A stretch of 64,000 nt of DNA. Origin: Candidatus Minusculum obligatum (GTDB lineage: Bacteria > Patescibacteriota > Minisyncoccia > Phycocordibacterales > Phycocordibacteraceae). Where the stretch lies: assembly GCA_002331145.1 (NCBI GenBank), contig DCYT01000001.1:90002-154001 (forward strand), read 5' to 3'. The notes below the pieces were generated by a model. It saw nothing but the letters and a program-made list of their open reading frames with translations. It ran no database searches and was not told the DNA's origin. The first letter of the stretch is position 1. Each line of letters opens with the position of its first letter. A program made the translations under genes and the position numbers. This document shows, piece by piece, positions 31,067 through 64,000 of the stretch.

Positions 31067-32707
31067 CTAATGCGTCTGGGCAGCTTGAACCTTTCGCACT
31101 CTCTCCCAAAACGTCTCGTATGCCTCCCCAGCCCACTCGCTACGATACTCATCCGCCTGTGCAATCCAGTTTTGAGCTTCGGTACGAATTGGTTGCTCCA
31201 ACGCTAAAAGCTCCAACTGGGCTTGCAAACCTATCGAGGTCGTTTTCATCCATTGAAACGGAGAGTCTGTAAGTGTGCGATACATGACTGCTTTGGCACA
31301 CTCATCCATCACCGCAATGAACTCCTCAACTGAGGGATTCTTCTGAGCAGCAAGTAGCCGCACTTCGGCGATGTTTTTCCTCACCATCGCCCACTCGTAT
31401 GGAGCGGTCTTCTCAGTCCACCAGCGTTCAGTTTTTTCGTATTTTTCTTTGGCGGCATCAGCGTGCGAAAGCTCGCCGGAACGCCCCATCATCTCTTTGT
31501 GATAGTTTCCGTAATTATTGTAGACCTTCGGACAGAGCATGAAGCTCCGATAGTCCGACCCGTCCAGCTCGATCGAAAGCGCGTCATCAAGCGCACGCTT
31601 TGCCCCTTCGAGAAACTCGGGATCGCTTGTGAGTTGATATTTTCGAATGTGCGTTATTGCTGCATTGTTATAAGCATCCGCGGCCACCAACGCATCATCC
31701 CCAGCAAGCTCGGTTGTTAACTGGAACAAATCGCTCGCCCGATTAAGCTGAGTGATATCTCCACGCTCTCCCAAACGTCGATATGCTAGCCCCAGCGCGT
31801 TGGCCATTTCATGATTGAAATTTGAAGAGCTTTCAAATTTTTCCAGAACGCCGATCGCCTGCGATAGTCCATCTGTATCCGATGATCGCGTGCTGATTTC
31901 CTGGACGATATTGGCCATCGCCGCGACGCTGTTAGGATCTAGTTCAAAATCACCTTCGGAGATCCGGTCGACAACATCGGTAAGTCGCTCGATACGGTTC
32001 TCGATGCCGTAGCAAATCAGTCCTGATTGGAGGTACTTGTAGACTGCCTCATCTCGCTCGACAGCGGTGAGCTCTTCTGAATGATCGAGCACATAATCCA
32101 AATCACGATGCGCCCTCAGAAATTCCTGTCTACTGAAGTGTTGGTTCGCGGTATCAAATTTGGTTTGGATTAGATTCATATGCTCATTGGAACGGTTCCC
32201 GACGCTAGGCGCGTCACCGGTCAATGCCGGCAAAGTTTTTTCCAGCAGCTCAAGCTTTGCGAGCTCGTCTACGAGAGCAAGGTTCTGCTGAGCCATCGCT
32301 GAAAAAATGTCGCTGAAAATTGATTCTGGCAATCCTAGCCGATCGGCTGCCTGAATACGTGGAGACACCACCAACTCTGGAAATATCACGTTTAAATTTG
32401 CGATGTTATAGGTTTTGTTCTTCTCAACAAAGTCACCACCAGCCACCTTGGATTCGTCGTGGACAACTCCATCCTTTGAAACATTTCCCAGGATACCGGC
32501 AGAGACATCTCCCCCGGCTGCCACACCATGCTTGCTAGCGCGTTGAGTTGGCTGGTTGGACTTGTAAATCAAGTATGCAGCTAGGGCCGCGGCAACCAAA
32601 AAGAGGCCACCGACCACAACCAAACCTCGGATGCCGAAACTCCTGAAGAATTCTAACACATCGCTTTGCTGTAGAAATTCTAGCATGTAGCTCTCCGCAG
32701 ACTTCAC
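31067..32707 (-). CDS. Membrane-anchored hypothetical protein (GC-rich cargo, helical repeat-like)
   Basis: The 546-aa ORF has an N-terminal TM segment (LVVVGGLFLVAAALAAYLIY). Its composition is clearly more GC-rich than the host. Confidence 0.55.
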   Translation of the reverse strand: MKSAESYMLEFLQQSDVLEFFRSFGIRGLVVVGGLFLVAAALAAYLIYKSNQPTQRASKHGVAAGGDVSAGILGNVSKDGVVHDESKVAGGDFVEKNKTYNIANLNVIFPELVVSPRIQAADRLGLPESIFSDIFSAMAQQNLALVDELAKLELLEKTLPALTGDAPSVGNRSNEHMNLIQTKFDTANQHFSRQEFLRAHRDLDYVLDHSEELTAVERDEAVYKYLQSGLICYGIENRIERLTDVVDRISEGDFELDPNSVAAMANIVQEISTRSSDTDGLSQAIGVLEKFESSSNFNHEMANALGLAYRRLGERGDITQLNRASDLFQLTTELAGDDALVAADAYNNAAITHIRKYQLTSDPEFLEGAKRALDDALSIELDGSDYRSFMLCPKVYNNYGNYHKEMMGRSGELSHADAAKEKYEKTERWWTEKTAPYEWAMVRKNIAEVRLLAAQKNPSVEEFIAVMDECAKAVMYRTLTDSPFQWMKTTSIGLQAQLELLALEQPIRTEAQNWIAQADEYRSEWAGEAYETFWERVRKVQAAQTH

Positions 32708-32765
32708 TCAGAAGTAGCACGGGCATTTATCAAACGCACTTTGTGCGAACCTACGAGGGAAGAAC

Positions 32766-32935
32766 TGGGGATAAAGAACTAGCGCCTGAGAGATTATCTC
32801 AAGCGCTTGCTCGAACGATGTTTCGATCACGACTCTGCTGTGCCGTGAAATCTACTGGCCTGGTCACACGGCTCGTGTGCAAATTTCCAAGCCTTGACGT
32901 TAGTGGGGTTGATCGGAAGTTAGGTCGAACTTTTT
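32766..32935. repeat. Long direct-repeat copy 1 plus R5 (Lb+Rb). It is a diverged duplicate (~80%) of the ~140 bp immediately 3' of tRNA-Ala. The identical 30-nt core is ctcgtgtgcaaatttccaagccttgacgtt.
   Basis: It aligns with 33909..34049: tggggataaaga...ttcgatc...ggtcacacgNctcgtgtgcaaatttccaagccttgacgtt(a/g)gtgg. It is followed by the Rb arm shared with R4. Confidence 0.7.
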
Positions 32936-33000
32936 GGAAGTTCATCGAGAAGCAGCATCAGCTCGAAGGTAGGCAGCGCAGCGAGGGTAGATCTTGACTC

Positions 33001-33843
33001 CTAAGCCGAAGCTTCGTCCGGCTCGAACCCTTCAAATTCAATGATGATGAAGATCTTCTTTCCTAGATCAACGCGATCGATCTCAACCTGAAACGAATGT
33101 TCGGTGAGGTTTTGAATGTAGCCGGCATGATCGACATCAGATGGCTCAAATATCTTGTCCGCATCCCAGAACTGGGTCTCGCCACCGTCCTCTTTGACCC
33201 GAATTCGTTCGATTTTACGATCCGCGCTGACTTCAACCCGAAGGTTTCTGCACGGCGTTAGAGACGCGACCGTGATTGATTTCTGGTATGGCCCCTCACC
33301 TTTAGGAAACAAGTAGCTGTACGAATGAGTATAGACATCCCCTGCATAGATCGGCTTGGGAGGTTTCCAGTACACATTGTAAGCGTCGGGACGAGGTTGT
33401 TCCGTCTTGTCGATGGTTGCGTCAGATGTCTTGTAGCGCATGTCATCAAAAGACAATCCGACAGAACCGAACAGCGTATCAACCAGCTCCTCAGACGTCG
33501 CATCGCGATGGAATAACATGGTCTTGTCACAGCCTACGTTCCGCGATCCGTCCTCGTTGAAATGCCAACGCTGAACAACGTCATTGTAAACAAATGACGC
33601 TTTTTCGTGTCGGTTGTATGTGGTGCGAACGTCAAACATAAACCATGCTAAGAAGATAAGTAAAATCAACCATATAATCGTGGATCCCGCAAGGAACGCG
33701 AGGCTCGGCCCTCCGGTCTCGGACAAAAAGAGAATAGCTTGAACAAGTGCGATAGCTGTGAGAAAGAGCGCCACAATTGCAGCTGCGGTTTTTCTTGGCC
33801 GCAGTGCGCGCTGTACGAGAATGCTCTCAATGCGCCTCCACAT
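33001..33843 (-). CDS. Membrane hypothetical protein (GC-rich cargo)
   Basis: The 280-aa ORF has two N-terminal TM helices. It lies between the two long direct-repeat copies. Confidence 0.5.
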   Translation of the reverse strand: MWRRIESILVQRALRPRKTAAAIVALFLTAIALVQAILFLSETGGPSLAFLAGSTIIWLILLIFLAWFMFDVRTTYNRHEKASFVYNDVVQRWHFNEDGSRNVGCDKTMLFHRDATSEELVDTLFGSVGLSFDDMRYKTSDATIDKTEQPRPDAYNVYWKPPKPIYAGDVYTHSYSYLFPKGEGPYQKSITVASLTPCRNLRVEVSADRKIERIRVKEDGGETQFWDADKIFEPSDVDHAGYIQNLTEHSFQVEIDRVDLGKKIFIIIEFEGFEPDEASA

Positions 33844-33908: not shown

Positions 33909-34049
33909 GTGGGGATAAAGACAATCGCCCAAGGTTTCACCCTGGGCGATTGTCGCTTCGATCTATCGATCGCGACTCTACTGAGCCGCGATTTTCACCA
34001 GCTTGGTCACACGTCTCGTGTGCAAATTTCCAAGCCTTGACGTTGGTGG
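33909..34049. repeat. Long direct-repeat copy 2 (the native tRNA-Ala 3' flank). It includes a hairpin (caatcgcccaaggtttcaccctgggcgattg) that is the likely tRNA terminator.
   Basis: See copy 1. It abuts or overlaps the tRNA 3' end. Confidence 0.7.
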
Positions 34050-34118
34050 ACTCGAGAGGAATCGAACCCCCGACCTCCTCAGTGCAAGTGAGGCGCTCTA
34101 GCCAACTGAGCTACGAGC
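34043..34118 (-). tRNA. tRNA-Ala (anticodon UGC) with an encoded CCA
   Basis: The minus-strand read is GGGCTCGTAGCTCAGTTGGCTAGAGCGCCTCACTTGCACTGAGGAGGTCGGGGGTTCGATTCCTCTCGAGTCCACCA. It has a G3:U70 pair, the anticodon loop CTTGCAC, and a T-loop TTCGATT. The T-stem contains two G-U pairs. Confidence 0.9.
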
Positions 34119-34141
34119 CCGTAAATGAGAGAATACAAGAC

Positions 34142-35065
34142 TTATCGCTTCAGCGCAAGGTCTTTTATGTGAGCCACAAACTCCTTTGAATTAGACCCGA
34201 TAGACTCTAATGCCTTTGAAAACAGTGATCCCTCATGGAATTTTGGAAGCGCATTTGCCTCTAAGAAATAAACTGTGTGGGGTGTAATAAGGAAATCAAT
34301 CTTCCCATAATGTCGCATGTTAAGAGCCTTAAATATCTCCTTGCTTGAGGCTTCAATCTCTTCTCTTTGTGTACGCGTAAAGTTCCCAGGACACCTCTCT
34401 ACCCACTCTCCATCAATCTTTTGGAGCTCTATTGGGGGAATCATATACAGAGGATTATCCCTAAATCCCTCAACTACATATACGCTTGCCTCCTTCCCTT
34501 TTATAAACTCCTCAAACTGTATTGGACCATGTTGTATAAGCTCCTCAGAAGCTCTATAGAGCTCCTCAGGCGTTGTTGCAATACGAACCCAGTGGCTTCC
34601 CTCTCCGTGCACACTTTTAACAACAAGAGGCAACCCCAAGTTTCGAACAGCAACAGCTCCCTGCATTTCAAGATCTTCTTCACTCTCACAAAGTACATAG
34701 CGCGCAATAGATACCCCATGCTCTTTCACTGTCTCCTTTGCGAGCACTTTATGTGAGCAGGTAAATGAAGGAAGTGCTGCAGACCCTGTATATGGAATTT
34801 TATGCTGACTTAGAAGCTTTTGCACTGTTCCATCTTCTCCATATGGACCATGCAGTGCATTAAATACAAGATCTACCATATTGAGCACTTTGTGTGGATC
34901 TGCTACTCGCCCACGATCAAACCACGTACCATCCTTATCTATATAGATATCTCTATGAGTCCCTGGAGACTCATAGAGATAATCTAAAACCAACTGACCA
35001 CTTTTAAGAGATGCTTTGTGATCTAGGGATGGTCCACCACGAAGTACAGCTACAGTGCTACTCAT
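34142..35065 (-). CDS. ddl: D-alanine--D-alanine ligase (ATP-grasp)
   Basis: The N-terminus (VAVLRGGPSLDHKASLKSGQLVLDYL) and the C-terminal ATP-grasp region (FLEANALP) resemble Ddl. Confidence 0.85.
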   Translation of the reverse strand: MSSTVAVLRGGPSLDHKASLKSGQLVLDYLYESPGTHRDIYIDKDGTWFDRGRVADPHKVLNMVDLVFNALHGPYGEDGTVQKLLSQHKIPYTGSAALPSFTCSHKVLAKETVKEHGVSIARYVLCESEEDLEMQGAVAVRNLGLPLVVKSVHGEGSHWVRIATTPEELYRASEELIQHGPIQFEEFIKGKEASVYVVEGFRDNPLYMIPPIELQKIDGEWVERCPGNFTRTQREEIEASSKEIFKALNMRHYGKIDFLITPHTVYFLEANALPKFHEGSLFSKALESIGSNSKEFVAHIKDLALKR

Positions 35066-35085: not shown

Positions 35086-36774
35086 TTAGAACTCCTCGAA
35101 GTCAGGAGGGATATTAACTGTTATTGATTCAGTAAATGTTTGCGTTGAAGCATCACACTCAATTGAGTACACACTTCGCTCAGTAATAGTTACATTTGCA
35201 GAACCATCGAGAGGATCATCTGTTGCGTTATTTACAAGAATACCAGGACCTACAATGTCACAACTATCAGTATCTTCTGCATGCCACACAACATTTACCA
35301 CCTCACCCTTTGGCACTCGAATAGAATCTGCCTCCCCATTCACGGTAATAGTAATATTTGGCTGTAGCACCTCAACATCTGCAAAGTCTCCTGCTCCACC
35401 ACAACTTACCTGATATGTTGCATCGCTTGTTGGCGCAACCTGCACACTTCCACTTGTCGAACCTCCTGTATTAAACCCAGTTCCAGTACATGAGCTTGCA
35501 GATGTAGAACTCCATGTAAGCGTTGTGCTCTCTCCTACAAGAATTTGAGTTGGAGATGCTGAAAGACTTGCTGTGGAATTTGAACCTCCACCATTTAGCG
35601 TCACTTCAACATTACATGTTGCAAATGTAGAAGCGTTTTCCGCATCAACATCAATACGTGCATTTTTTACCCCTATAGATCCGTATGTCTTTGCTACAGA
35701 AGCTGAACTTCCTGAAAGACTGTCTGTACCGCTCCATGAGTAGTTGGTAGTACCAATATTATTTTGAACGGTTGCAGTCCATGTCACTGACTGATTTACA
35801 GCAGGCTGCAGTGGACTTGGAGTACAACTTACTGAAAGCCCTCCCCCTGTTCCTGGGTTGTCTACCTGGAATGTAGTTATTGGACCACAGTTGTTTCCTT
35901 CGTTCTCCTCTGCAATCTCATTACCTGGATCGGCACATACACGCACTTGATGTCGTCCACTTGGTGGATTATTCCATGTATATGAGCCAGTCTTAAAGTT
36001 TCCTGCAGTTAGATTTGTAATTGCATTATTTACATCAATATTTTGATCAAAAGCTGAGCTGGCGTCTGAGTTGATTGCAATTTGCAACCGCATATCAATA
36101 CCTCCTGCAATATCAGACCCTCCAATATTCTGAATTGGTACCTCAAAGAGCATTTCTCCACCACCGTCTTGCTCTGTGGCAACTACTGTTCCAGCTGTTA
36201 GATCAGGGTCACCTCCTCCACCAACACAAGCTTCATTTGTTCCTGTTACTCCATACCCAGGGCCTCTAAATGAAAGCCATCCGATTGTTGCTGTTCGCTC
36301 ATTACTTCCTCCTCCCCATGCTTCTCCCTGCCAAGCACAACTAACCGCTTCAACTTGCACACGTGGTGTTCGCCCTAGATAAATCCAACCATCCCAATCT
36401 CCTGAATTTGAAACTCCACCTGCAAGCGCTTTTGCCCATCCGCTTACATGTCCGGTATTACTATCAAAACTTGCCTGACACGTACCGCTTGGACATCCTG
36501 CAGTATCTGCGCTATTAAAACTAATCCAACCAACATTTGAAGACCATGCATACCCTTCAATGTTTCCATTATTTTTAACTCCTACCCAGTATGAAGAATT
36601 CCCACACACCCCAGCATTCTCACAAGTAAGACTTACCCACCCAATTGTTGAAGACCATGCATACCCAGTAAGGTTTTTAGGTACTGATGGACTTGTTTGT
36701 GCCTGTGCTGAAACCGCACCTACAAATAAAGCACTTATGAAAAGTAGTGTGAATGTAAGAAGTGTTTTTTTCAT
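35086..36774 (-). CDS. Large secreted repeat protein with W-rich GYAWSS(T/N)(I/V)GW(V/I)S(L/F) repeats and Ig/CARDB-like beta domains
   Basis: It has a signal peptide (MKKTLLTFTLLFISALFVGAVSAQA), a thrice-repeated GW motif, and T/S/G/N-rich beta-strand-like segments. Confidence 0.65.
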   Translation of the reverse strand: MKKTLLTFTLLFISALFVGAVSAQAQTSPSVPKNLTGYAWSSTIGWVSLTCENAGVCGNSSYWVGVKNNGNIEGYAWSSNVGWISFNSADTAGCPSGTCQASFDSNTGHVSGWAKALAGGVSNSGDWDGWIYLGRTPRVQVEAVSCAWQGEAWGGGSNERTATIGWLSFRGPGYGVTGTNEACVGGGGDPDLTAGTVVATEQDGGGEMLFEVPIQNIGGSDIAGGIDMRLQIAINSDASSAFDQNIDVNNAITNLTAGNFKTGSYTWNNPPSGRHQVRVCADPGNEIAEENEGNNCGPITTFQVDNPGTGGGLSVSCTPSPLQPAVNQSVTWTATVQNNIGTTNYSWSGTDSLSGSSASVAKTYGSIGVKNARIDVDAENASTFATCNVEVTLNGGGSNSTASLSASPTQILVGESTTLTWSSTSASSCTGTGFNTGGSTSGSVQVAPTSDATYQVSCGGAGDFADVEVLQPNITITVNGEADSIRVPKGEVVNVVWHAEDTDSCDIVGPGILVNNATDDPLDGSANVTITERSVYSIECDASTQTFTESITVNIPPDFEEF

Positions 36775-36787
36775 AAAAATGCGCATA

Positions 36788-37420
36788 CTAATTTAAATCA
36801 AGACGAGGTCCGTTTCCTCCACCGTTATCATCATTACTTCCATTTCCACTGCTACCACCACTTGAATTACCACCAGTATCTCGAAGTGTATCTTCTCCAG
36901 CACTAAAGGTAAGGCCAGCATCACAAGTAAGCTTCAAATACTGACAGTAGTTTACTCCTGCACAGTCTCGCCCCTGCACTCCAGGACACTTGTCATGAGC
37001 TACATTTATCCACCCTTCTGATGCACGAGACCCAAGAACATTGTCACAACCTCTTCCAACTTCTTCCGGCTTTACATTTGCCTGAGTAACGTGAGGATTC
37101 CCCTCCAAAATAAGATACTCCCACCTACATGTTGTTGAAAGCGTTGATCCAGAAGGAGAAGGCCATGAGCTTCTACAATCACTCCCAATGCATACCTGAG
37201 AAGAACCCTTTACGTTATATCCACTTACATTTCCTGCACTAAGGTCTCCAACTTTTACTTGATCAACTGTTGATGTTTGAAGTGGGAGCTCAGCGTTATT
37301 TCCTGGGAAATTAGCTGTTGGCATGGCAAAAGATGCGGCCATTGCTGTCCCTGCCAAAAGAAGCATTCCTGCAATTAGCATTCCTGCACCAGTTTTTATT
37401 TCTGTAAGATTTTTACTCAT
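36788..37420 (-). CDS. Cys-rich secreted protein, paralog 1 of 3
   Basis: It shares the motifs C(I/L)GSDCRS(S/A/T)W and C-P-G-V-x-G-R-D-C-x-G-x-x-Y-C-x(5)-C-D-A-G-(I/L)-T with the next two genes. It has an N-terminal signal anchor. The start is set at MSKNLTEI. Confidence 0.65.
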   Translation of the reverse strand: MSKNLTEIKTGAGMLIAGMLLLAGTAMAASFAMPTANFPGNNAELPLQTSTVDQVKVGDLSAGNVSGYNVKGSSQVCIGSDCRSSWPSPSGSTLSTTCRWEYLILEGNPHVTQANVKPEEVGRGCDNVLGSRASEGWINVAHDKCPGVQGRDCAGVNYCQYLKLTCDAGLTFSAGEDTLRDTGGNSSGGSSGNGSNDDNGGGNGPRLDLN

Positions 37421-37421
37421 A

Positions 37422-38111
37422 TTAATTTGCTTGGAGTCCACCACTTTCATTATTATCATCTGGAGTCTCACAGTTAATATCATCCATGTCTGTTCGACCA
37501 TCATTATCGTTGTCTCGTCCATCAGAACATTGTGAATCTGGATTTGGATTAGCAATTGCAAAGCTTCCCTCCTCAAAAGTGATTCCAGCATCACATTCAA
37601 ATCGAATGTACTTGCAATAACTTGCCCCTGAACAGTCTCGCCCTGATACTCCTGGACAGTTATCAAATGAAACCATCATAAATCCAAGATCTTTTTCTTC
37701 TTGAGTAAGTTGGCCATCACAATTCTCTGCAAGACGCTCTTGGGTAATCCTGGTATTTTCATGAGCTGCACCTGGCTGCCCATCTACATCTGCAATAGTG
37801 AGCGTATGAACCTGACATGAAGTAGAAAACTCAGAGCTTCCTGAAGGCCAAGCGCTTCGACAGTCACTTCCAATACATACTTCATTCTGTCCTGTTACTC
37901 TGCTCTGACCAAAAAGATTGCGGACAGAAAGGCCGGCTTCTTTTACCTGGTTTGTAGAACCAATATGCAATGGAGCTGCAGGATTACTATTTGTAGGACC
38001 TGCTCCAGGATGTGTAAAGTTTGCAGCATACGCAACGATTCCAACAAAAAGACCTAAAAAGACTAGTGGTCCAAGAATGTATTGCGCTTTTGTGAACATT
38101 TCTTTTTTCAT
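37422..38111 (-). CDS. Cys-rich secreted protein, paralog 2 of 3
   Basis: It has the same two Cys motifs (VCIGSDCRSAWPSG; NCPGVSGRDCSGASYCKYIRFECDAGITF). Confidence 0.65.
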   Translation of the reverse strand: MKKEMFTKAQYILGPLVFLGLFVGIVAYAANFTHPGAGPTNSNPAAPLHIGSTNQVKEAGLSVRNLFGQSRVTGQNEVCIGSDCRSAWPSGSSEFSTSCQVHTLTIADVDGQPGAAHENTRITQERLAENCDGQLTQEEKDLGFMMVSFDNCPGVSGRDCSGASYCKYIRFECDAGITFEEGSFAIANPNPDSQCSDGRDNDNDGRTDMDDINCETPDDNNESGGLQAN

Positions 38112-38116
38112 AAAAA

Positions 38117-38698
38117 TTAATATCTTCCTGCCTGTGTGGTTATACCTGCATCACACTGCAATTGGATAAAGTAACAGTAACTTGCTCCTGCACAATCTCG
38201 ACTTGAAACACTTGGACAATTATCAAAACTTATAAGCATCCAGCCTGCTGCTCTATCTGCAGTTGAAATTTGCTGATCACACTTAGCTGCCATTTGCCCC
38301 ACTTGAACTGTTCCATTTTGATAGTGCGGAATGCCTGGAGAATCTTGAGGACTTGCAACAATACGCCTATTCACTGTACATGTTGTTGAAAAATCTGAAC
38401 CCTGGCTTCCCCACGTACTTCGACAATCACTTCCAAGGCAAAGTTCTGAAAGTGCAGTTAATTTCTCTGCAATAATATTATCTGCCCAAAGGTTTCCAGA
38501 CTTTGTTTGAGCTATAGCACTTGTATTGAGTGGTGCTGAGACATTTCCGTTTGGAGGATTACTTCCTGGCTCAGTAAAACTTCCTGACACAACCCCAACA
38601 AAACCAAAGAAAAGAATCATTGGAAGAGCTGTGGTGAAAAACACTTTTGCTGTAAAAATCTTTTTCATACTATTGATTGATTGCATTAAACTTCCCAC
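38117..38698 (-). CDS. Cys-rich secreted protein, paralog 3 of 3
   Basis: It has the motifs LCLGSDCRSTWGSQG and NCPSVSSRDCAGASYCYFIQLQCDAGITT. Confidence 0.65.
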   Translation of the reverse strand: MGSLMQSINSMKKIFTAKVFFTTALPMILFFGFVGVVSGSFTEPGSNPPNGNVSAPLNTSAIAQTKSGNLWADNIIAEKLTALSELCLGSDCRSTWGSQGSDFSTTCTVNRRIVASPQDSPGIPHYQNGTVQVGQMAAKCDQQISTADRAAGWMLISFDNCPSVSSRDCAGASYCYFIQLQCDAGITTQAGRY

Positions 38699-38924
38699 CT
38701 CGAGTTAAATCTCCTTGCGGTTGAGTCTCCGCAAATTCCTTTAGCTCTTCAAGTTTTGCAGCCTCCTCTCTTTCTTGGAACCAAGAAATGACTGACTGAC
38801 GAATAGGAGTAATGGCATAACCAAGAACAACAAGAAGAATTATTATTCCCAAAACAATACCTCCAATTTTCACAAGAGAACTCTCTTCTTGCGGAGCTTC
38901 TGTTGTTATCTGCTCTTCGTTCAC
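38670..38924 (-). CDS. Small single-TM protein, first gene of the secreted-protein operon
   Basis: The 84-aa ORF has a TM segment (IGGIVLGIIILLVVLGYAI). Confidence 0.45.
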   Translation of the reverse strand: MNEEQITTEAPQEESSLVKIGGIVLGIIILLVVLGYAITPIRQSVISWFQEREEAAKLEELKEFAETQPQGDLTRGGKFNAINQ

Positions 38925-38938
38925 AGATAAAGTATAGC

Positions 38939-40150
38939 CTACCTTTTTAAGTTATCCCTCCGTGATCTGTGGAAAGAAATCGAATACCTATGTGCTTCTG
39001 CATTTGCAAGAATAATATCTCCTTCTGGAGTTGAAACTCCTGGCAGTCCAATAATCTTTTTGGGTCTGTGATATTCATCTTTTGTTACGGCAACCACAGG
39101 AATTTGTAATCCTAATCTATCTAAAACTTTCAGTGCAGCATTTTTCTGCGCCACCCCTCCATCTACTACAATTACCTTCGGATATTCCCACTCAGGATGT
39201 CCAAAACGTCTTTCCAATAGTTCAGTTAGAGAACCCACATCATTATTCCCATGCTCTTTGATAAGAAACTTTCTGTAGTTTTTCTTTTCAACCTCCCCAT
39301 CTACAACAATTGTCATAACTCCAACCGTGTCTTGTCCACTTGTGTGCGCTACATCGTACCCTTCTACGCGTACACCGTGCACTCGTCGCAGGTCATTTTT
39401 AATAAGTGACACATCTTGAATATGAGTTAATGAGAACATTTGTCTCTTGTGCCGCTGTGCATCTTCAAAACGCTCCTCTTTTGCAGCTTTTTTCATCTCC
39501 TTCTCAAGCTCTTTGAGGATTATCTTCTTTTTTCCAGATAAAAAGAGTTCTATGTGGCGAATATTTCGCACATACTCAGTATGCGAAACATCCCGTGGAT
39601 ACCTTCCAATCTGCCTATTAAATTCTAAGTGTGCACCCTGATGCTTACTCTCTCTTGTTACTGCATTTTTTGTATCGTAAAAGGGAAAGATCTTTCGAAT
39701 AATATCGAGTGCTTTTTTAAGCGATGGCCCACTGGTAAATGGCCCATACTTATTTTTTACCAAATCTAATTTAAATGTAGTTCCCAGGTCTTTCCCACGC
39801 ACCGCCAAAACCCTTGGCCACTCTTCTTTTGTTACAACAGCATAGAGATAACTTTTATCGTCCTTTTCTTTTACATTATAAAAAGGTTGATGCTTTTTAA
39901 TTTTTAGAGATTCAAGAATAAGAGCTTCGAGAACTGAATCAGTTTCTTCATACAAAACTTCATCTGCCTTCGTAACCATGTCTACAATACGAGGACCGCG
40001 AGAAGAAATAACGTCATCATTAAAATAACTCCGCACTCTATCGCGAAGAGATGTTGCCTTTCCAATGTAGAGAATCTTTTTCTTTTCTAAAAATGTATAT
40101 ACACCGGGCTTATCAGGCAGATCAAAATTATTTAGATCCTTTCTTTGCAT
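38939..40150 (-). CDS. uvrC: Excinuclease ABC subunit C, short form (GIY-YIG + UVR + RNase-H-like endonuclease domain, no C-terminal HhH)
   Basis: It has the GIY-YIG motif (PGVYTFLEKKKILYIGKATSLRDRVRSYF) and the VEGYDVAHTSGQ region. It is 403 aa and overlaps the uvrA 3' end. Confidence 0.8.
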   Translation of the reverse strand: MQRKDLNNFDLPDKPGVYTFLEKKKILYIGKATSLRDRVRSYFNDDVISSRGPRIVDMVTKADEVLYEETDSVLEALILESLKIKKHQPFYNVKEKDDKSYLYAVVTKEEWPRVLAVRGKDLGTTFKLDLVKNKYGPFTSGPSLKKALDIIRKIFPFYDTKNAVTRESKHQGAHLEFNRQIGRYPRDVSHTEYVRNIRHIELFLSGKKKIILKELEKEMKKAAKEERFEDAQRHKRQMFSLTHIQDVSLIKNDLRRVHGVRVEGYDVAHTSGQDTVGVMTIVVDGEVEKKNYRKFLIKEHGNNDVGSLTELLERRFGHPEWEYPKVIVVDGGVAQKNAALKVLDRLGLQIPVVAVTKDEYHRPKKIIGLPGVSTPEGDIILANAEAHRYSISFHRSRRDNLKR

Positions 40151-42752
40151 GTTTTTTTAGTGTCTTTGCAAGGTATTTCCCTGTAAATGAGCTTGTAACT
40201 TTTGCCACTTCCTCTGGAGTTCCTTTTGCAATAACTACCCCACCATTTTCTCCTCCTTCTGGCCCAAAGTCCACAATATGATCAGCTGACTTAACTACAT
40301 CAAGATTGTGCTCAATAACAAATACTGAATTCCCTCGCTCTACAAGCTCTTGAAGAATAGTAATAAGCTTTGCAACATCGTCATAGTGAAGTCCTACTGT
40401 TGGCTCATCAAGAAGATACACTGTCTTTGTTTGAAGTGGACGGAAGAGCTCTGACGCAATCTTCACGCGCTGTGCTTCTCCACCAGATAATGTGGTTGCT
40501 GATTGTCCAAGTTTTAGATACCCAAGACCTACATCAAGCAATGCCTTAAGACGATCATTGATTGCAGGAATATCTTTATAGAATTCATATCCTTCCTCTA
40601 CGGTCATCTGAAGTACTTCATAGATATTCTTTCCTCTATATGTCACATCAAGCGTTTCTTTCATAAATCGCTTTCCATCACACACATCACACTTCACATA
40701 CACTGTTGGAAGGAAATGCATTTCTACCGCCACTGTTCCATTTCCCTGGCATGCTTCACAACGTCCACCTTTCACATTGAAAGAAAATCGTCCTGGCTTC
40801 CAACCACGAGCTCTTGCCTCACTTGTTGCAGCAAACAGGTCTCGTATGTGCGTGAATGCTCCTGTATATGTTGCAGGGTTAGACCGAGGAGTTCTTCCAA
40901 TTGGTGACTGGTCGATAAGCACTGCACGATTTACATACTCACTTCCCAAGAACTTTGCACAGTTGTGATGCGCTGCCTGCTTTGTTTTCCGATCAAATCG
41001 GCTCACCAAGTTTTTATGAACAACATCATATAAGAATGTAGATTTACCAGATCCTGACACACCGGTAATACAAACAAGCTTTCCAAGAGGAAGATCTACA
41101 TTTTGATTCACCATATTATGCTTGCTTGCCCCCACAATCTTCAAACTTCCCTTTTCTGCAGTTCGCCTTTTCTCTGGCACGGGAATCATTTTCTCTTCTC
41201 GAAGATACGCGAGAGTTCTTGATCCGCTTGTATTTTTCTTTGCAGTTAGCAAATCATCTAGATATCCAGAGACTACAATCTCTCCACCGTGCACTCCAGC
41301 TCCTGGCCCCACATCAATAAGATAGTCTGCAGCGTAGATAGTATCTTCATCGTGCTCTACTACGATAATGGTATTTCCAAGATCCCTTAGCTGCGTAAGC
41401 GTTTGGATCAAACGATCATTATCTCTTTGGTGTAGACCAATCGTTGGCTCATCAAGCACATACAGGGCCCCGACAAGACCTGATCCAAGCTGAGATGCAA
41501 GACGAATACGCTGCGCTTCTCCACCTGATAGCGTATTTGCCTTTCTATCAAGTGTTAGATAATCAAGTCCTACATTAAGAAGGAATGAAAGCCGTGCTCG
41601 TACCTCACGCAAGATTGGCTCTGCAATCTCTTCCTGCTTCTTTGTGAGATTTAAGTTATCAAAGAATTCTGCTGCATCTGTAATCGAAAGATGTGCAGCC
41701 TCTACAATATTTTTTCCAAGATCTTTTCCTTTTCCTCCCAAATAAACCCTTAATGCCTCGGGACGAAGTCGCTTCCCATCACACACTGCACAAACCTCAT
41801 CATCAAAAAGCGCAACTGTTCCAAGACCATTACACTCAGGACACGCTCCATATGGAGAGTTAAATGAAAATAGGCGAGGCTCAACATCTGGGAACCCTGC
41901 TCCATCGACAGGACAAATGAATTTTGCAGAAAGAGTCTCAAACTCTCCATTTGCATGACCAATCTTTACAAGACCTTCAGTCTCACGCAGCGCAAGCTCG
42001 AGCGCTTCAGAGAGTCGCTCCTTTGCACCACTTGGATCATTCTTAAATTCTGTTACATAAATCTCATCAACAAGACCATCGATATCATGTCGCTTTGTTT
42101 TGGTAAGGGTAATCTTGTCTCGAAGTGAATGTATTTTTCCATCAATCATCACGCGCTCAAATCCCTTCCCGAGCAAATCATAAAGTAGCTGATAGTACTC
42201 ACCCTTTCTTCCCACAACTACAGGAGCAAAAATTTGAATCTTTTGCTTGTTTAGTGGCACACCCATAACCTCTTCTGCCTTCTCTTCATCCGGAATAATC
42301 TTCTTTGTAACTAAAGTGATCATTTCATCTTTTGAAAGCTTCTCAATCTTTACGTCATCATCCAAACAATACGGCTGCCCTATACGAGCATAGAGCACTC
42401 GAAGGTAGTCATAGATCTCTGTAATAGTGGCTACCGTAGATCGAGGATTGTTTGACCTGCTCTTTTGATCAATTGAAATGGCAGGTGATAGTCCTGAAAT
42501 CTCATCAACCTCAGGCTTTTGCATTTGATGCAAGAATTGCCGCGCATAAGCAGAAAGAGATTCAACATAACGCCTTTGTCCTTCTGCAAAGATCGTATCA
42601 AAGGCAAGCGAAGACTTTCCAGAACCAGAGAGTCCTGAAATAACAACCATTTTGCCGCGAGGCATTGAAACGGTTACATTCTTAAGATTGTGGGTCTTTG
42701 CGCCCTTAACAACAATCTCATCTGATGGTTCATGTTTTTTATGATTTGCCAT
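40128..42752 (-). CDS. uvrA: Excinuclease ABC subunit A
   Basis: It has two ABC modules and zinc fingers. The N-terminal motif is [35 protein letters not shown]. The start is set at MANHKK. Confidence 0.95.
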
Positions 42753-42802
42753 ACGTATTGTCCCTACGAGCTGCTCATAGGGTTTGTATAGAAGCACTAT
42801 AC

Positions 42803-42828
42803 ACAAAAGGCTCCCTTTCGGGAACCTT
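42803..42828 (-). terminator. Hairpin terminator after the response-regulator gene (ggctccc-tttc-gggaacc)
   Basis: The stem-loop is followed by a T-run on the minus strand. It resembles the hairpin at 46435..46458. Confidence 0.5.
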
Positions 42829-61337: not shown

Positions 61338-61443
61338 TAAACCACCATACCATGGATTGTATTTTGTATTGCCCACACCAAGATGAGCTGCTTCGATCAG
61401 AAACGCAAAATATCAGCCTGATAGGTTCGACGGATGCCAGTCT

Positions 61444-61911
61444 GTGAGACTTGGCGGATTTGTTTCCCCAATCCCAGTCGAGTTGTTGGATTTGGCCGCA
61501 CAACGCCTTCTTGATTCACGCGCGTTGATCGACGGGTTCGAAACTTCGATACAAGCCCAGCATTTCTTTCTTTCGCTGGCCAGCGCGGCTGCGGTCGGCA
61601 AGTCAACGAAGCTCGCGGAGAGATTGACCTTCGCAGTCAGTGCGCACTGTCAGCAAGTGAAGCATCGACTGCCAATAGAGATCGCCATGGTGATCGGTGT
61701 AAGCGCGTCTGCCGCGCAACCCTCCGAGCAAGATGCCGATACTTGGCTCGGGGAGTACGCAACAAGGCTTGCTTTCGGAGTTAGAGAAACCGATGAAGCC
61801 AAAAGGTTGTTGGGCGTGATAAGCACGCTTTGCCGAGTACGCCCCTCTCTACGAGCACAGCTCAGCAAGTCGATTGTCGCTGCCCGCGCGGCTAGTTGGT
61901 TAGATGACTGA
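61444..61911 (+). CDS. Hypothetical protein (GTG start) on the GC-rich island
   Basis: The 155-aa ORF is only weakly supported, because GC-rich DNA yields many ORFs. Confidence 0.25.
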   Translation: MRLGGFVSPIPVELLDLAAQRLLDSRALIDGFETSIQAQHFFLSLASAAAVGKSTKLAERLTFAVSAHCQQVKHRLPIEIAMVIGVSASAAQPSEQDADTWLGEYATRLAFGVRETDEAKRLLGVISTLCRVRPSLRAQLSKSIVAARAASWLDD

Positions 61912-62217
61912 CTAGGATCTTCGCCCATAGCTGAGTGTTCCGCCTGGTGGCAACTCGAATGGGCGCTTTGTCGCTGATTGTGATTATCCGGCGGTGGAGC
62001 GGCATCGACATCGAACGTCCGCTTTCGGGATATACCTGACATTGAATACGCTCTGAGCGAGACGCAACTTGCGAATGCTCTGACCGGTCAAATTGCATGA
62101 TCTTGAATGAGGTAAATTTAGCACTCCAAATGGGATGCATACTCGGGCCGGGGCGCCGCAACGATGCGCGTATATCGCGCCTGAACAAGCCCATGTGGAT
62201 AGCGAAGCTATGGCACA

Positions 62218-62601
62218 ATGAGTGTGCCTTTGCCGCTAATTGCACAGGCCTATCCCTCTATGATCAACGCCAATGCCATTCGGCTTCGCGCCTGCCGCAG
62301 ACGCGGCGGGCTTGATCAAGTCGACCTCGCTTTTTTACTTGGCATCAGTCGTCACGCCGTCTCAAGGCTTGAACGTGGACTGGCAACGCCAAGTGCTGAA
62401 ATACTTATTCGTTACGAGCTAATTTTCGAAGTGCCGGCTGCAAACGTCCTACCCGACACCCGCATCCTCCTATCTGGACAAATACACGCTCGAGCGCAGC
62501 AAGCCTTAAGCCGATGCCGCCTGTCGAAGTCTGAGGCCGGTCGACAGAAGGCCATCTTTCTCCAGACGATGTGCGGACGGTTGGCTCGACCCAGCCAATG
62601 A
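62218..62601 (+). CDS. XRE-family helix-turn-helix transcriptional regulator
   Basis: It has the HTH region QVDLAFLLGISRHAVSRLERG. Confidence 0.5.
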   Translation: MSVPLPLIAQAYPSMINANAIRLRACRRRGGLDQVDLAFLLGISRHAVSRLERGLATPSAEILIRYELIFEVPAANVLPDTRILLSGQIHARAQQALSRCRLSKSEAGRQKAIFLQTMCGRLARPSQ

Positions 62602-63083
62602 CTCCCCTCTCAATTTGGGTGCTTGCGGTGGAACCCCACGCACACGGCCTAGCCTTCGCGGCGTTCGCAGCCGGTGGAGATCTCGTCGATTGGGGAAGCT
62701 ATGATGGACGCGATTGTGAGTGCAGCGCTATGCGTCAACGCTGCAGACGCTTGGTCCATGAACTTTCCCCTTCTATCGTTGGAATTGAAGATGTGGACCA
62801 GCCAGATTGCGTGCGTTCCAAGCGAATGCGCGACTTGTTGAGGTCGGTTCGCCAAGATGTCTTGGATAACGGTATAGCGGTCGTCCGCGTGCCGCGTCGG
62901 TTGATGCGCAAGCGTGTGAAGGGGTTGGATCGACATTCCTCTACACTCTACCACCTGAGTGACCGGTCTAGTGAGGTTCAGTACCTATCGGCGCACCGAT
63001 CCACCCGAGCGGTGCCGGTACGAAAGGCCATGCGTATCGGGTTGGCGGTCATCGCGACGAGGCGCAAGTCGAATATCTCGTGA
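62571..63083 (+). CDS. Hypothetical protein downstream of the XRE gene
   Basis: The 170-aa ORF overlaps the XRE gene end. No motif was recognised with confidence. Confidence 0.3.
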   Translation: MRTVGSTQPMTPLSIWVLAVEPHAHGLAFAAFAAGGDLVDWGSYDGRDCECSAMRQRCRRLVHELSPSIVGIEDVDQPDCVRSKRMRDLLRSVRQDVLDNGIAVVRVPRRLMRKRVKGLDRHSSTLYHLSDRSSEVQYLSAHRSTRAVPVRKAMRIGLAVIATRRKSNIS

Positions 63084-63315
63084 ACTTGGCTACCATCGGA
63101 GTTCGAAGGCTTATTCCTCAACCGGCCCTCTGAACCAACGTCAAGTCAGGTGTTCAACCTCGGTCAAAATTGCTCGACGAGGCTCTTCAAATTGGCCGGC
63201 TCCGATTAGCCCGTGATCGTCTGCCAAGATGCCTATCCGGCAGGCACAATTGAGGGGATTCGCCTGGTCTCTGGTTGTGATAGACTGTCTCCACACTAAT
63301 AGTCGGAGGCGGATA

Positions 63316-64000
63316 TGGACGATGCTGCAGGCAAAGCTGTAGCGATATGGATTCGCGTATCCACCGAAGACCAGGCGCGTGGCGAAAGCCCCGAGAACCA
63401 CGGACAACGTGCAAAGTTTTACGCGCACTCCAAAGGCTGGTCTGTGGAGCGCGTCTATGACCTCTCAGGGGTATCGGGACAGTCGGTGGCCAACCACCCT
63501 GAAGCCAAACGAATGATGGCCGACATCCAGAGCGGCGCGATCACAGGCCTTATCTTTTCCAAGCTCGCTCGGCTGGCCCGCAATACCAAAGAGCTACTCG
63601 ATTTCGCCGAGTTCTTTCGCGCCAAAGACGCAGATCTAATCTCACTCCAAGAAGCGATGGATACGTCATCGCCTGATGGCCGTCTTTTCTACACGATGAT
63701 TGCTGCAATGGCGCAATGGGAGCGAGAAGAGATCGCCGAACGTGTTGCGGCCTCCTTTCCCGTGCGCGCCAAACTAGGCAAGCCTCTCGGAGGCCAGACG
63801 ACGTTTGGCGATCATTGGAAAGATGGTGAGCTGGTTCCCAACCCCGATGAAGCACCCGTTCGCAAGCTCATCTATGAGTTGTTTGCCGAGCACAAACGCA
63901 AGAAGACCGTGGCTCGTCCCCTCAATGAACGCGGCTACAGGCCCCGTAAGGGCGCCAGGTTCTCCGACACCACGATCACTCGGCTAATCACCGATCCAAC
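63316..64000 (+). CDS. Large serine recombinase (resolvase/invertase catalytic domain + recombinase domain). The C-terminus is beyond the window.
   Basis: The ATG at 63316 is preceded by GGAGG. The protein begins [20 protein letters not shown] (catalytic Ser), followed by [13 protein letters not shown]...[31 protein letters not shown]. It is not in the ORF track because there is no stop within the window. Confidence 0.85.

Follow-up and report, generated by a model that had tools for sequence, protein, structure and literature searches.

The closest described parallel to the proteins discussed below is found in the mosaic adhesive trimer (MAT) fibres of Bdellovibrio bacteriovorus (Caulton et al. 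2024, PMC10769870), in which a signal peptide precedes an N-terminal domain that does not vary and presumably attaches the protein to the cell, and the C-terminal tips can be exchanged. MAT proteins are fibres of about 1,000 amino acids, their N-terminal domain of about 130 residues is beta-rich and without homologue in the PDB, and no surface binding partner of this domain is known (PMC10769870). For Patescibacteria, the literature that we searched offers type IV pili and giant adhesin-like proteins as candidates for the recognition and holding of host cells. The locus described in this work lies in a 64,000-nucleotide stretch of DNA (the window), and points to a separate, widespread and wholly unannotated system beside these two. 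With moderate confidence we propose that it is a conserved three-component extracellular operon of Patescibacteria, which would encode a modular surface fibre, probably trimeric, docked on a W-repeat/Ig-like partner. An earlier note on this DNA had supposed an episymbiont-like organism, which agrees with the lineage, that of the ultra-small Patescibacteria.

Organisation of the locus

The locus is composed of five closely packed genes, all on the minus strand and at the positions previously given for them: an 84 amino acid membrane protein, the three paralogs A, B and C, and a 566 amino acid W-repeat/CARDB protein (Table 1). The intergenic gaps from uvrC through this cassette to ddl are 14, 1, 5, 1, 13 and 20 nt in turn. 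A promoter and terminator scan found no terminator within the cassette, and promoter-like sites were rarer than in shuffled sequences; tRNA-Ala was the sole match of the Rfam scan. An equivalent cassette is present in the uvrC–ddl interval of at least five further contigs or genomes, a pattern which exceeds chance.

Searches with the five proteins found nothing in PADLOC, and nothing useful in Pfam, NCBIfam and PHROGs beyond the CARDB domain and one sub-threshold acidic repeat. Regular expression and hydropathy scans of the same five proteins detected neither an LPXTG motif with transmembrane span and basic tail nor an N-terminal lipobox cysteine, and a sortase substrate or lipoprotein was rejected on this ground.

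Table 1. Features of the cassette, in window coordinates.
Feature	Position	Strand	Details
Small single-pass membrane protein	38670..38924	-	84 aa, GTG start
Paralog A (parA)	38117..38668	-	183 aa; signal peptide, N-module, Cys-rich knob, without C-terminal tail
N-module of paralog A	38411..38581	-	aa 30-86; SFTEPGSNPPNGNVSAPLN...QTKSGNL...CLGSDCRSTW
Knob of paralog A	38135..38380	-	aa 97-178; 6 conserved Cys, variable loop aa 106-129
Paralog B (parB)	37422..38111	-	229 aa; signal peptide, N-module aa 31-88, knob aa 99-180
Paralog C (parC)	36788..37420	-	210 aa; signal peptide, N-module aa 30-86, knob aa 98-173
Secreted W-repeat/CARDB/Ig-like protein	35086..36786	-	566 aa; 562 aa from second ATG, 36774
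W-repeat domain	36217..36681	-	aa 36-190; GxAWSxxIGWISF hairpin-like repeats
CARDB domain (PF07705)	35887..36207	-	aa 194-300; E 1.1e-11, 45.2 bits, cut-off 22.7
C-terminal motif PPDFEEF	35089..35109	-	instance of P-x-[FWY]-x-E-[IFL]

The three paralogs

Paralogs A, B and C share two motifs. The first, C[IL]GSDCRS[SAT]W as originally described, is present in exactly one copy per paralog; the second is likewise present in all three, but the pattern first given for it had to be corrected to CP[GS]V.[GS]RDC.G..YC-x6-CDAG[IL]T, since paralog A carries the variant CPSVSSRDC and the spacer has six residues and not five. Where at least six invariant cysteines had been claimed, eight were counted across the paralogs, and these eight are invariant in 15 homologs as well. 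The statement that the paralogs belong to no known family holds: no match was found in Pfam (E<=1), PHROGs (E<=0.1), NCBIfam at its curated cut-off, PADLOC or the PDB, and a PDB sequence search with profiles of the paralog and W-repeat families gave chance matches only (EF-Ts, antibody Fv).

The C-terminal ends differ. Paralog C has a tail rich in Gly, Ser and Asn, and paralog B an acidic, Cys-flanked DxDxDG tail (aa 191-216), which matches NCBIfam NF033662 acid_disulf_rpt below its cut-off of 41 (E 8.5e-5, 22.2 bits). The CxDGxDNDxDG...C unit of this tail also occurs within W-repeat proteins of other cassettes. For paralog C the ATG at 37420 gives 210 amino acids, while an upstream ATG chosen by one gene caller gives 220.

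Tandem paralogy had been taken as a sign of diversification, a view that did not stand. A, B and C are distinct orthogroups whose order is kept in at least three genomes, with 46-67% identity among orthologs versus 33-40% among paralogs, so that the trio is ancient, and a rapidly diversifying tandem array is excluded. In other lineages one or two N-module gene copies are found.

The N-terminal module and its family

The N-terminal half of each paralog starts with a signal peptide, after which comes the conserved end of the mature protein, [WF]TxPxxxPPxGNxxAPLN...QxKxG...CIGxDCRxxWP. The earlier note had described an N-terminal signal anchor; each paralog does have one N-terminal hydrophobic span and nothing else that is membrane-like, but a cleaved signal peptide is more likely. 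Secretion itself, also claimed there, is borne out by signal peptides with a classical AxA-type site. Among 177 distinct N-module sequences, 149 have an aromatic residue (W in 94, F in 46) after the cleavage-site alanine at -1 (94) and Ala or Val at -3 (94), and the hydrophobic region stops a median of three residues before this pattern. The secreted components of the cassette all carry Sec-type signal peptides, as predicted from their sequences.

An exhaustive HMMER search gave 3,481 protein clusters at E<=1e-3 and 289 at E<=1e-10, the majority of matches being confined to the N-terminal module (paralog A: E 2e-38 with the N-module HMM, 1e-29 with the knob HMM). What follows the module differs from lineage to lineage, the heads being swapped. 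Out of 86 N-module relatives, ten carry Peptidase_S74 and ten the Shufflon_N fibre-repeat region, and Collagen, Gp34_trimer, Gp53-like_C and Collar domains are also found; among 34 cassette-linked relatives S74 is present in five, together with collagen-IV C4, GP38, Dockerin and Ig domains elsewhere in the set. In one cassette, L067, each of three N-module paralogs in tandem bears a pair of collagen-IV NC1 (C4) domains (E 1e-56 to 1e-61). Some relatives are named in NCBI as "tail fiber domain-containing protein" and others are auto-named PilV.

Such names raise two alternatives. A remnant of a prophage or tailocin tail-fibre module would account for the names of the first kind and for the phage-tail-fibre type of the relatives' domains. 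It is nevertheless a very improbable origin and was rejected: the neighbourhood holds no phage genes, the cassette sits at the identical chromosomal position in several genomes, its GC content equals that of the surrounding genome, no PHROG matches, N-module patterns run against 2.9 million viral contigs yielded no confirmed relative, and a Sec signal peptide, absent from virion fibres, is present in all members. We likewise reject, as also very improbable, type IV pilin-like or pseudopilin subunits, which the N-terminal hydrophobic helix, the dependence of Patescibacteria on type IV pili and the PilV names might suggest. The check for sortase and pilin motifs, proposed in the earlier note, was run on the paralogs and found neither LPXTG nor the prepilin motif G|FxxxE; the AxA signal-peptidase I site comes after the hydrophobic segment, and the Shufflon_N matches of the relatives cover profile positions 206-289, an internal repeat region outside both the pilin N-terminus and the N-module.

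The knob domain

Because the module in the N-terminal half is widespread and is also found in tail-fibre-like proteins, lineage specificity is limited to the C-terminal knob. A first AlphaFold model, built with 15 sequences, was poor (pLDDT 52), while a second, of paralog A and with 42 sequences, was usable, with a mean pLDDT of 77.9 and 81-94 in the knob. The Foldseek comparison put forward earlier as a check matched the knob model to no known structure, neither in the PDB nor in BFVD, and no significant structural match was found to the C-type lectin-like, TNF-like and gC1q folds. A C-type-lectin-like knob, suggested by a loose resemblance in Cys spacing, is thus unsupported by the fold search. 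The loop of the knob is its least conserved part (29% identity, against 74-100% in the remainder).

These data bear on a further explanation, in which the proteins would be a structural component of the envelope, e.g. a wall- or S-layer-associated scaffold, serving envelope integrity without host recognition. The core-genome site between uvrC and ddl with its conserved synteny, the evident purifying selection on the three paralogs, the likeness of the acidic, repeat-rich W-repeat/Ig-like protein to wall-associated proteins, and the absence of hypervariation machinery nearby are all compatible with a scaffold. We regard it as possible though unlikely, given that the N-module relatives bear receptor-binding parts of phage tail fibres (gp38, S74 chaperone, collar), that head swapping between lineages is typical of recognition proteins and less so of scaffolds, and that the knob has a variable loop.

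The mature paralogs have about 150-200 amino acids, some 45 residues separating the conserved N-terminal peptide from the Cys hairpin, and contain no recognised fibre repeat, S74, collar or collagen segment; for these short proteins the term fibre may therefore overstate the shape.

The W-repeat protein and the small membrane protein

The 566 amino acid protein was correctly predicted to join W-repeats to Ig/CARDB-like domains. Copies of the repeat are GYAWSSTIGWVSL, GYAWSSNVGWISF and a degenerate GEAWGGG...IGWLSF, the match to the W-repeat HMM has an E value of 1.4e-65, and 11 of the 16 tryptophans lie within the first 166 residues. The CARDB domain scores above the gathering threshold, and PKD-like repeats are indicated by a weak PKD_4 match. 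The W-repeat domain has 126 homologs, mostly in Patescibacteria, and neither a Pfam or other curated model nor a relative in the PDB. A P-x-[FWY]-x-E-[IFL] motif at or near the C-terminus is common to most of about 75 complete W-repeat proteins, and this PxFxE[IF] end likewise has neither a curated model nor a PDB relative. The protein as a whole is acidic and repeat-rich.

The 84 amino acid protein has the one transmembrane span expected from the earlier reading: the span lies in the region of about aa 13-46, between a short N-terminal stub and a tail that is helical and acidic (pI 4.5). Orthologs of 82-112 aa are found at the equivalent position in four other loci (L003, L005, L006 and L012), and in most cassettes a small transmembrane ORF adjoins the W or N genes. 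Of the 22 ORFs matched by a profile of the small-TM family, 21 are no more than 300 bp away from a W or N gene; the match of this profile to the 84 amino acid protein of the window is marginal (E 0.005, with 43 sequences searched).

With secreted, Cys-rich paralogs in tandem and a small membrane protein beside them, the layout recalls bacteriocin-immunity loci, and the paralogs could accordingly be read as disulfide-rich toxins or bacteriocin-like effectors with the membrane protein as immunity factor. In one relative the knob is fused to a pretoxin-HINT domain, an observation in line with such a role. We rejected it as quite improbable: no gene dedicated to export or processing is present, the proteins exceed the typical size of bacteriocins, the N-terminal module is common to long fibre-like proteins, the linkage with the large W-repeat/Ig-like protein is conserved, and PADLOC and the toxin families of Pfam and NCBIfam gave no match.

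Recurrence of the cassette

Linkage was determined in 80 metagenomic loci fetched by the W-repeat domain, a sample which includes near-duplicates, so that the statistics given here overcount somewhat. An N-module gene lies within 1.6 kb of the W gene in 42 of the 80 loci, and in 22 of the 32 that are flanked on either side by 2 kb or more. All N-module genes are co-oriented with the W gene (53/53); 52 lie within 2 kb of it and one beyond, in similar amounts of DNA (Poisson P ~1e-50). A small single-pass membrane protein usually accompanies the two (about 45-fold enrichment). The genes also remain linked in L012, where their order is permuted, and in L010, a distant Giovannonibacteria genome. 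No N-module gene was detectable in about half of the W-repeat loci, some of which are short-flanked, while others adjoin RNase Y or rpsB.

The genes in the window had been proposed to form one module, and same-strand linkage of the three gene types across many unrelated contigs indicates that these neighbours do belong together. With N-module, W-repeat and small single-pass TM genes adjacent on the same strand, the locus has the composition of the recurring co-oriented cassette and is thus one instance of a conserved three-component operon. No description of this cassette was found in the literature, searched by motif strings and by topic.

Proposed function

In the explanation which we favour, the operon encodes three kinds of protein: a small membrane protein with a single span, between one and three N-module proteins, which are secreted, and a W-repeat protein, likewise secreted, with Ig-like (CARDB/PKD) domains. 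Cleavage by signal peptidase would expose the invariant mature end [WF]TxP...PPxGN..APLN..QxKxG as a conserved base by which the protein is kept on the cell; this base would most likely be bound by the co-encoded W-repeat protein, and the small membrane protein may act as anchor or assembly factor. The C-terminal part would be an exchangeable distal head, in the lineage of the window a compact knob of about 80 amino acids with a variable loop and three predicted disulfides. The three paralogs are old, individually conserved subunits and probably represent either three chains of one trimer or three fixed specificities, which would make contact with another cell or surface. The S74 ends and GNVGIGT-type repeats of many N-module relatives point to a trimeric fibre architecture in the superfamily, and the three NC1-bearing tandem paralogs of L067 back the trimer reading. 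From the family context, the cassette plausibly serves in adhesion or attachment to a host cell.

A narrower version, speculative and in our view rather doubtful, is that of an unrecognised Patescibacteria appendage. The translationally coupled paralogs would form a 1:1:1 A/B/C heterotrimer comparable to those of C1q or collagen IV, whose newly exposed [WF]TxP..PPxGN..APLN peptides would insert in the aromatic W-repeat domain; the W-repeat partner would be tethered by the PxFxE[IF] motif at its C-terminus together with the small membrane protein, and one docking platform could be directed to different hosts by exchange of the head (knob, S74 fibre, NC1, gp38, dockerin). If true, the cassette would give the Candidate Phyla Radiation a general means of host recognition in addition to type IV pili.

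The operon as we favour it would join a docking end common to thousands of secreted proteins with interchangeable heads, several of them borrowed from, or common with, phage receptor-binding proteins, and with two conserved partners. The locus provides three domain families without curated model, two conserved terminal motifs and one defined operon. The collagen-IV NC1 domains in bacterial cassettes bear on the origin of that animal basement-membrane domain.

Comparison with known systems

Among surface proteins with CARDB/PKD Ig-like domains, the 566 amino acid protein has a true CARDB domain besides PKD-like repeats that match weakly, while its defining W-repeat domain and PxFxE[IF] end fall outside the curated models. 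Collagen IV NC1 and C1q A/B/C offer an analogy only, i.e. three adjacent paralogous chains with a conserved stem and a disulfide-bonded globular head; the knob is related to NC1 and gC1q neither in sequence nor in fold. In fibres of the K1F endosialidase/T5 pb1 type, the C-terminal Peptidase_S74 and GNVGIGT-type repeats match many N-module relatives, whereas the paralogs of the window have no S74, collar or fibre repeat and no PHROG match, and the N-module family is chromosomal with Sec signal peptides throughout.

The likeness to MAT fibres is one of architecture: signal peptide, conserved N-terminal domain and variable C-terminal tips. Compared by description, the MAT N-terminal domain (about 130 aa, beta-rich) differs from the N-module (about 60-65 aa, mostly predicted coil), and the MAT fibres of about 1,000 aa differ from the window paralogs of about 200 aa, which have no long trimeric shaft. 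For MAT genes no W-repeat or small-TM partner is reported, unlike for the cassette. Both families split into S74 and non-S74 subfamilies and both are found in bacteria living by contact with other cells; the chimeric fibres of the predator Bdellovibrio are a natural parallel.

Organisation of the locus

The cassette is composed of five genes lying on one strand between uvrC and ddl: one for a small single-pass membrane protein, three for Cys-rich secreted proteins (paralogs A, B and C), and one for a Trp-repeat protein with a CARDB domain (the W-repeat protein). The gaps from uvrC through the five genes to ddl are 14, 1, 5, 1, 13 and 20 nt. For A and C the ATGs ahead of the hydrophobic segment were taken as starts (the listed long ORFs start further upstream), and these match the gene calls on identical public contigs. 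Apart from slight differences in motif wording and Cys count, positions, paralog motifs, W-repeats and CARDB domain were recovered as the earlier note had described them, and the feature is real and non-random. In the 64-kb window, profile matches to the N-module, i.e. the signal peptide and conserved mature N-terminal half of the paralogs, and to the W-repeats fall in the cassette genes only.

Coordinates of the cassette and its neighbours in the window
Feature	Position	Strand	Remark
uvrA	40128-42806	minus	upstream of cassette
uvrC	38939-40150	minus	directly before cassette
single-pass membrane protein, 84 aa	38670-38924	minus	
paralog A, 183 aa	38117-38668	minus	
paralog B, 229 aa	37422-38111	minus	
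paralog C, 210 aa	36788-37420	minus	
W-repeat/CARDB protein, 566 aa	35086-36786	minus	
PPDFEEF, instance of P-x-[FWY]-x-E-[IFL]	35089-35109	minus	
ddl	34142-35065	minus	directly after cassette
tRNA-Ala	34044-34120		beyond ddl

The paralogs and the N-module family

Identity among the three paralogs is 33-40%. They share eight invariant cysteines, where at least six had been counted before, as well as the motifs C[IL]GSDCRS[SAT]W and CP[GS]V.[GS]RDC.G..YC-x6-CDAG[IL]T. Both motifs are thus present as noted earlier, except that A has Ser for Gly and that the spacer of the second is six residues long. The absence of any match in the curated libraries Pfam, NCBIfam, PHROGs and PADLOC bears out the view that the paralogs stand outside known families; their family profile had no match in the PDB, and in a word-indexed search of 5.8 billion proteins no more than about 15 relatives matched over their full length.

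When 1.84 billion cluster representatives were searched exhaustively with HMMER, 3,481 of them matched at E<=1e-3 (289 at E<=1e-10, 13 at E<=1e-30), most of them only over query positions about 1-95. The N-module is built of a signal peptide, the motif [WF]-T-x-P-x3-P-P-x-G-N-x3-P-[LI]-N ... Q-x-K-x-G, about 15-20 variable residues and the Cys hairpin C-I-G-x-D-C-R-x-x-W-P, which is repeated in longer relatives (up to 14 matched stretches in one protein of 3,523 aa). The mature-end motif was found in 149 of 177 distinct N-module sequences; among these 149 its aromatic residue is W in 94 and F in 46, position -1 is Ala in 94, position -3 is Ala or Val in 94, and the hydrophobic core stops a median of 3 residues earlier. 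As this is the classical signal-peptidase I pattern, the conserved motif would be the mature N-terminus after cleavage, and the secretion of the paralogs proposed earlier finds support in this sequence pattern.

Lipobox, LPXTG and prepilin motifs are absent from the cassette proteins, and the check for sortase or pilin motifs recommended for the paralogs therefore came out empty. The NCBI names of relatives include 'pilus tip adhesin PilV'; with no prepilin motif in the cassette, it is unlikely that the paralogs are pilins. Tested for membership, they belong neither to the phage S74 fibres nor to the type IV pilins, sortase substrates or lipoproteins.

Peptidase_S74, the intramolecular chaperone of trimeric phage fibres, ends 10 of 86 N-module proteins. 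Another 10/86 count applies to the internal repeat region of Shufflon_N, matched at profile positions 206-289 by protein residues 77-200, which leaves the N-module and the pilin N-terminus uncovered. Further domains among the 86 are Collagen, Gp34_trimer, Gp53-like_C, Collar, and Gly_rich_2 or Hint, and the remaining NCBI names include 'tail fiber domain-containing protein' and 'cell wall surface anchor family protein'. The organism names are mainly of Patescibacteria groups (Niyogibacteria, Paceibacterota, Parcubacteria), with one Aerophobetes and one Woesearchaeota record. No N-module could be confirmed when 2.9 million viral contigs were scanned by pattern. Given these domains and the viral scan, the N-module heads a large cellular family of secreted, tail-fibre-like proteins with exchangeable distal parts; a prophage remnant, for all the tail-fibre names, is an unlikely reading. 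The heads of the 34 cassette-linked N-module proteins include S74 (5/34), GP38, collagen, dockerin, Ig and collagen-IV C4.

Some relatives carry extensions behind the knob, the C-terminal Cys-rich head of the paralogs. One knob-bearing protein (L014:2762-3724, also P0033) runs on into a pretoxin-HINT/intein-like domain (PT-HINT, E 4.8e-12), which suggests autoproteolytic release or a polymorphic-toxin-style C-terminus in some members; for the cassette itself, a toxin with its immunity protein is an unlikely explanation. In P0049, P0100 and P0118 (599-629 aa) N-module and knob are followed by long beta-propeller-like repeats (Lactonase/WD40-type Pfam matches), and their C-termini have the same acidic Cys-flanked DxDxDG units as the tail of paralog B.

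The W-repeat protein

Behind its signal peptide, the 566-aa protein has an N-terminal domain rich in Trp, made up of GYAWSSxxGWxS[LF] repeats. It also contains a CARDB domain (E 1.1e-11), which is the only true family membership in the cassette, and weak PKD-like repeats, and it ends in PPDFEEF. For the W-repeat domain (aa 36-190), 126 homologs were found at E<=1e-3, nearly all of them unnamed Patescibacteria proteins without Pfam domains, and no relative in the PDB. W-repeat proteins nearly always end in P-x-[FWY]-x-E-[IFL], at or a few residues from the C-terminus, which looks like a terminal docking or processing motif. Variants in the window and in L013-L092 include PPDFEEF, SPEFKEI and LPEWEEVSP, and a transmembrane segment never follows the motif. 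In a 686-kb genome (L011:1-3840) a 169-aa W-repeat gene stands alone, with neither a signal peptide nor an N-module gene beside it detected; the type IV pilus genes pilM, pilO and an MshEN-domain ATPase are a few kb away, and this proximity may be a coincidence.

Linkage of the three gene types

Linkage was analysed in 80 metagenomic loci fetched by W-repeat alignment only, whose six-frame ORFs were scanned with locally built HMMs. An N-module ORF lies within 1.6 kb of the W gene in 42/80 loci, and in 22 of the 32 whose flanks both measure 2 kb or more. Without exception, the 53 N-module ORFs share the strand of the W gene; they precede it in 23 loci and follow it in 19. The 212 kb of DNA up to 2 kb from the W gene contain 52 N-module genes, versus 1 in the 182 kb beyond, an enrichment of about 45-fold (Poisson P about 1e-50, optimistic due to near-duplicate loci); even with these duplicates the effect is plain. 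The Giovannonibacteria genome L010 has a 267-aa W-repeat protein, preceded by a single-TM protein of 78 aa and by an N-module protein of 194 aa whose head is a different one.

In most cassettes the W or N genes have a small single-pass ORF (70-130 aa) beside them. An iterated profile from one of these small ORFs matched 22 of 4,139 ORFs, 21 of the 22 within 300 bp of a W or N gene; the 84-aa protein of the window shares their architecture and position, but its match to the profile is marginal. The ectodomains carry SxxEKxxILxSL[ST]xP in 1-4 copies or the Pro-rich PEPTxxxPL (e.g. L037:4530-4844, L049:4484-4855, L018:1550-1873, L055:1092-1430), the latter resembling TEPTxxPP...APLN at the mature N-terminus of N-module proteins. 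The acidic CxDGxDNDxDG...C unit of the paralog B tail occurs also in W-repeat proteins of other cassettes, suggesting that parts are shuffled within one complex.

Genomic context and age

Identical or near-identical cassette proteins occur on marine Tara Oceans contigs, the longest of 602,686 bp, and the closest named genomes are 'Patescibacteria group bacterium UBA3533' (L007) and 'UBA2103' (complete, CP174360.1, 578,798 bp); the lineage is one of the ultra-small Patescibacteria (CPR). L001/L002, L003 and L006/L007 share the order uvrB, histidine kinase, response regulator, uvrA, uvrC, small membrane protein, three paralogs, W/CARDB protein, ddl. The same order is found in L005/L013 with one paralog and a 938-aa W protein, and it is permuted in L012 (W protein, small membrane protein, two paralogs), so that copy number, which the earlier note had proposed to compare, varies from one to three. 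The cassette is core chromosome and not an island. This position would also suit the main rival, a housekeeping envelope scaffold, which we consider rather improbable next to a conserved module with variable heads.

In a neighbour-joining tree A, B and C form three groups, each with the window, L006 and L003 copies, and orthologs are 46-67% identical versus 33-40% for paralogs. The trio is old, not DIVERSIFYING, and the tandem arrangement, formerly taken as a sign of diversification, reflects long-separate orthogroups. Single-copy forms of the L005 type are a clade apart, outside A/B/C, and separate duplications produced the two copies of the L012 lineage and the three of the L014 lineage.

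The cassette of L067 (metagenome contig Ga0326597_10003354, 4681-8875) combines a small membrane protein and a W-repeat protein with three N-module paralogs in tandem, and every one of these paralogs has two collagen-IV NC1 (Pfam C4) subdomains (E 1e-56 to 1e-61). In animals this domain selects and locks collagen-IV trimers, and such strong bacterial matches to a basement-membrane trimerisation domain are unexpected. Together with the S74, collagen and Gp34 relatives, the C4 pairs point to a likely trimeric assembly, possibly a heterotrimer of A, B and C.

Two other segments of the window differ in composition. Beside tRNA-Ala, 31067-33843 (GC 0.50 vs about 0.42) holds ORFs of 546 and 280 aa with N-terminal TM segments and no Pfam family; the genes after ddl differ in relatives (a serine recombinase in L006; HD, adenine glycosylase and TspO genes in L003 and L005), and the segment looks like a variable island. 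The stretch 61400-64000 (GC 0.53-0.56) holds nothing but short overlapping ORFs, among them one for an XRE-type HTH protein at 62218-62601, and Rfam gave no match there; the DNA may be of foreign or mobile origin, or contigs may have been joined here in the assembly.

Proposed function and comparison with known systems

The window holds one copy of a three-component cassette for secreted proteins that is widespread among Patescibacteria and unannotated; it is best classed with modular surface fibres or adhesins in which the base is conserved and the heads can be exchanged. On the basis of the export signals on the secreted components, the conserved module with variable heads and the three-gene linkage, we lean slightly towards a modular surface fibre cassette as the overall reading. 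Within it, the components are highly likely to be extracellular and the three gene types very probably work together; adhesion or host recognition specifically is a more tentative assignment, at somewhat under even chances. Signal peptidase would expose the invariant N-terminal peptide, which with the adjacent segment would form a proximal base. The W-repeat/Ig-like protein, the small membrane protein or both would keep this base on the cell; the knob would be a distal, ligand-facing head with a variable loop, and the function would be contact with another cell or surface.

No description of the N-module, the W-repeat domain, the knob or their operon was found in open-access texts; other literature may hold one. 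The closest functional analogue, compared here by architecture, is the set of mosaic adhesive trimer (MAT) fibre proteins of Bdellovibrio bacteriovorus, in which a signal peptide is combined with an invariant N-domain, whose surface partner is not known, and with variable tips; their subfamilies are of S74 and non-S74 type (Caulton et al. 2024, PMC10769870).
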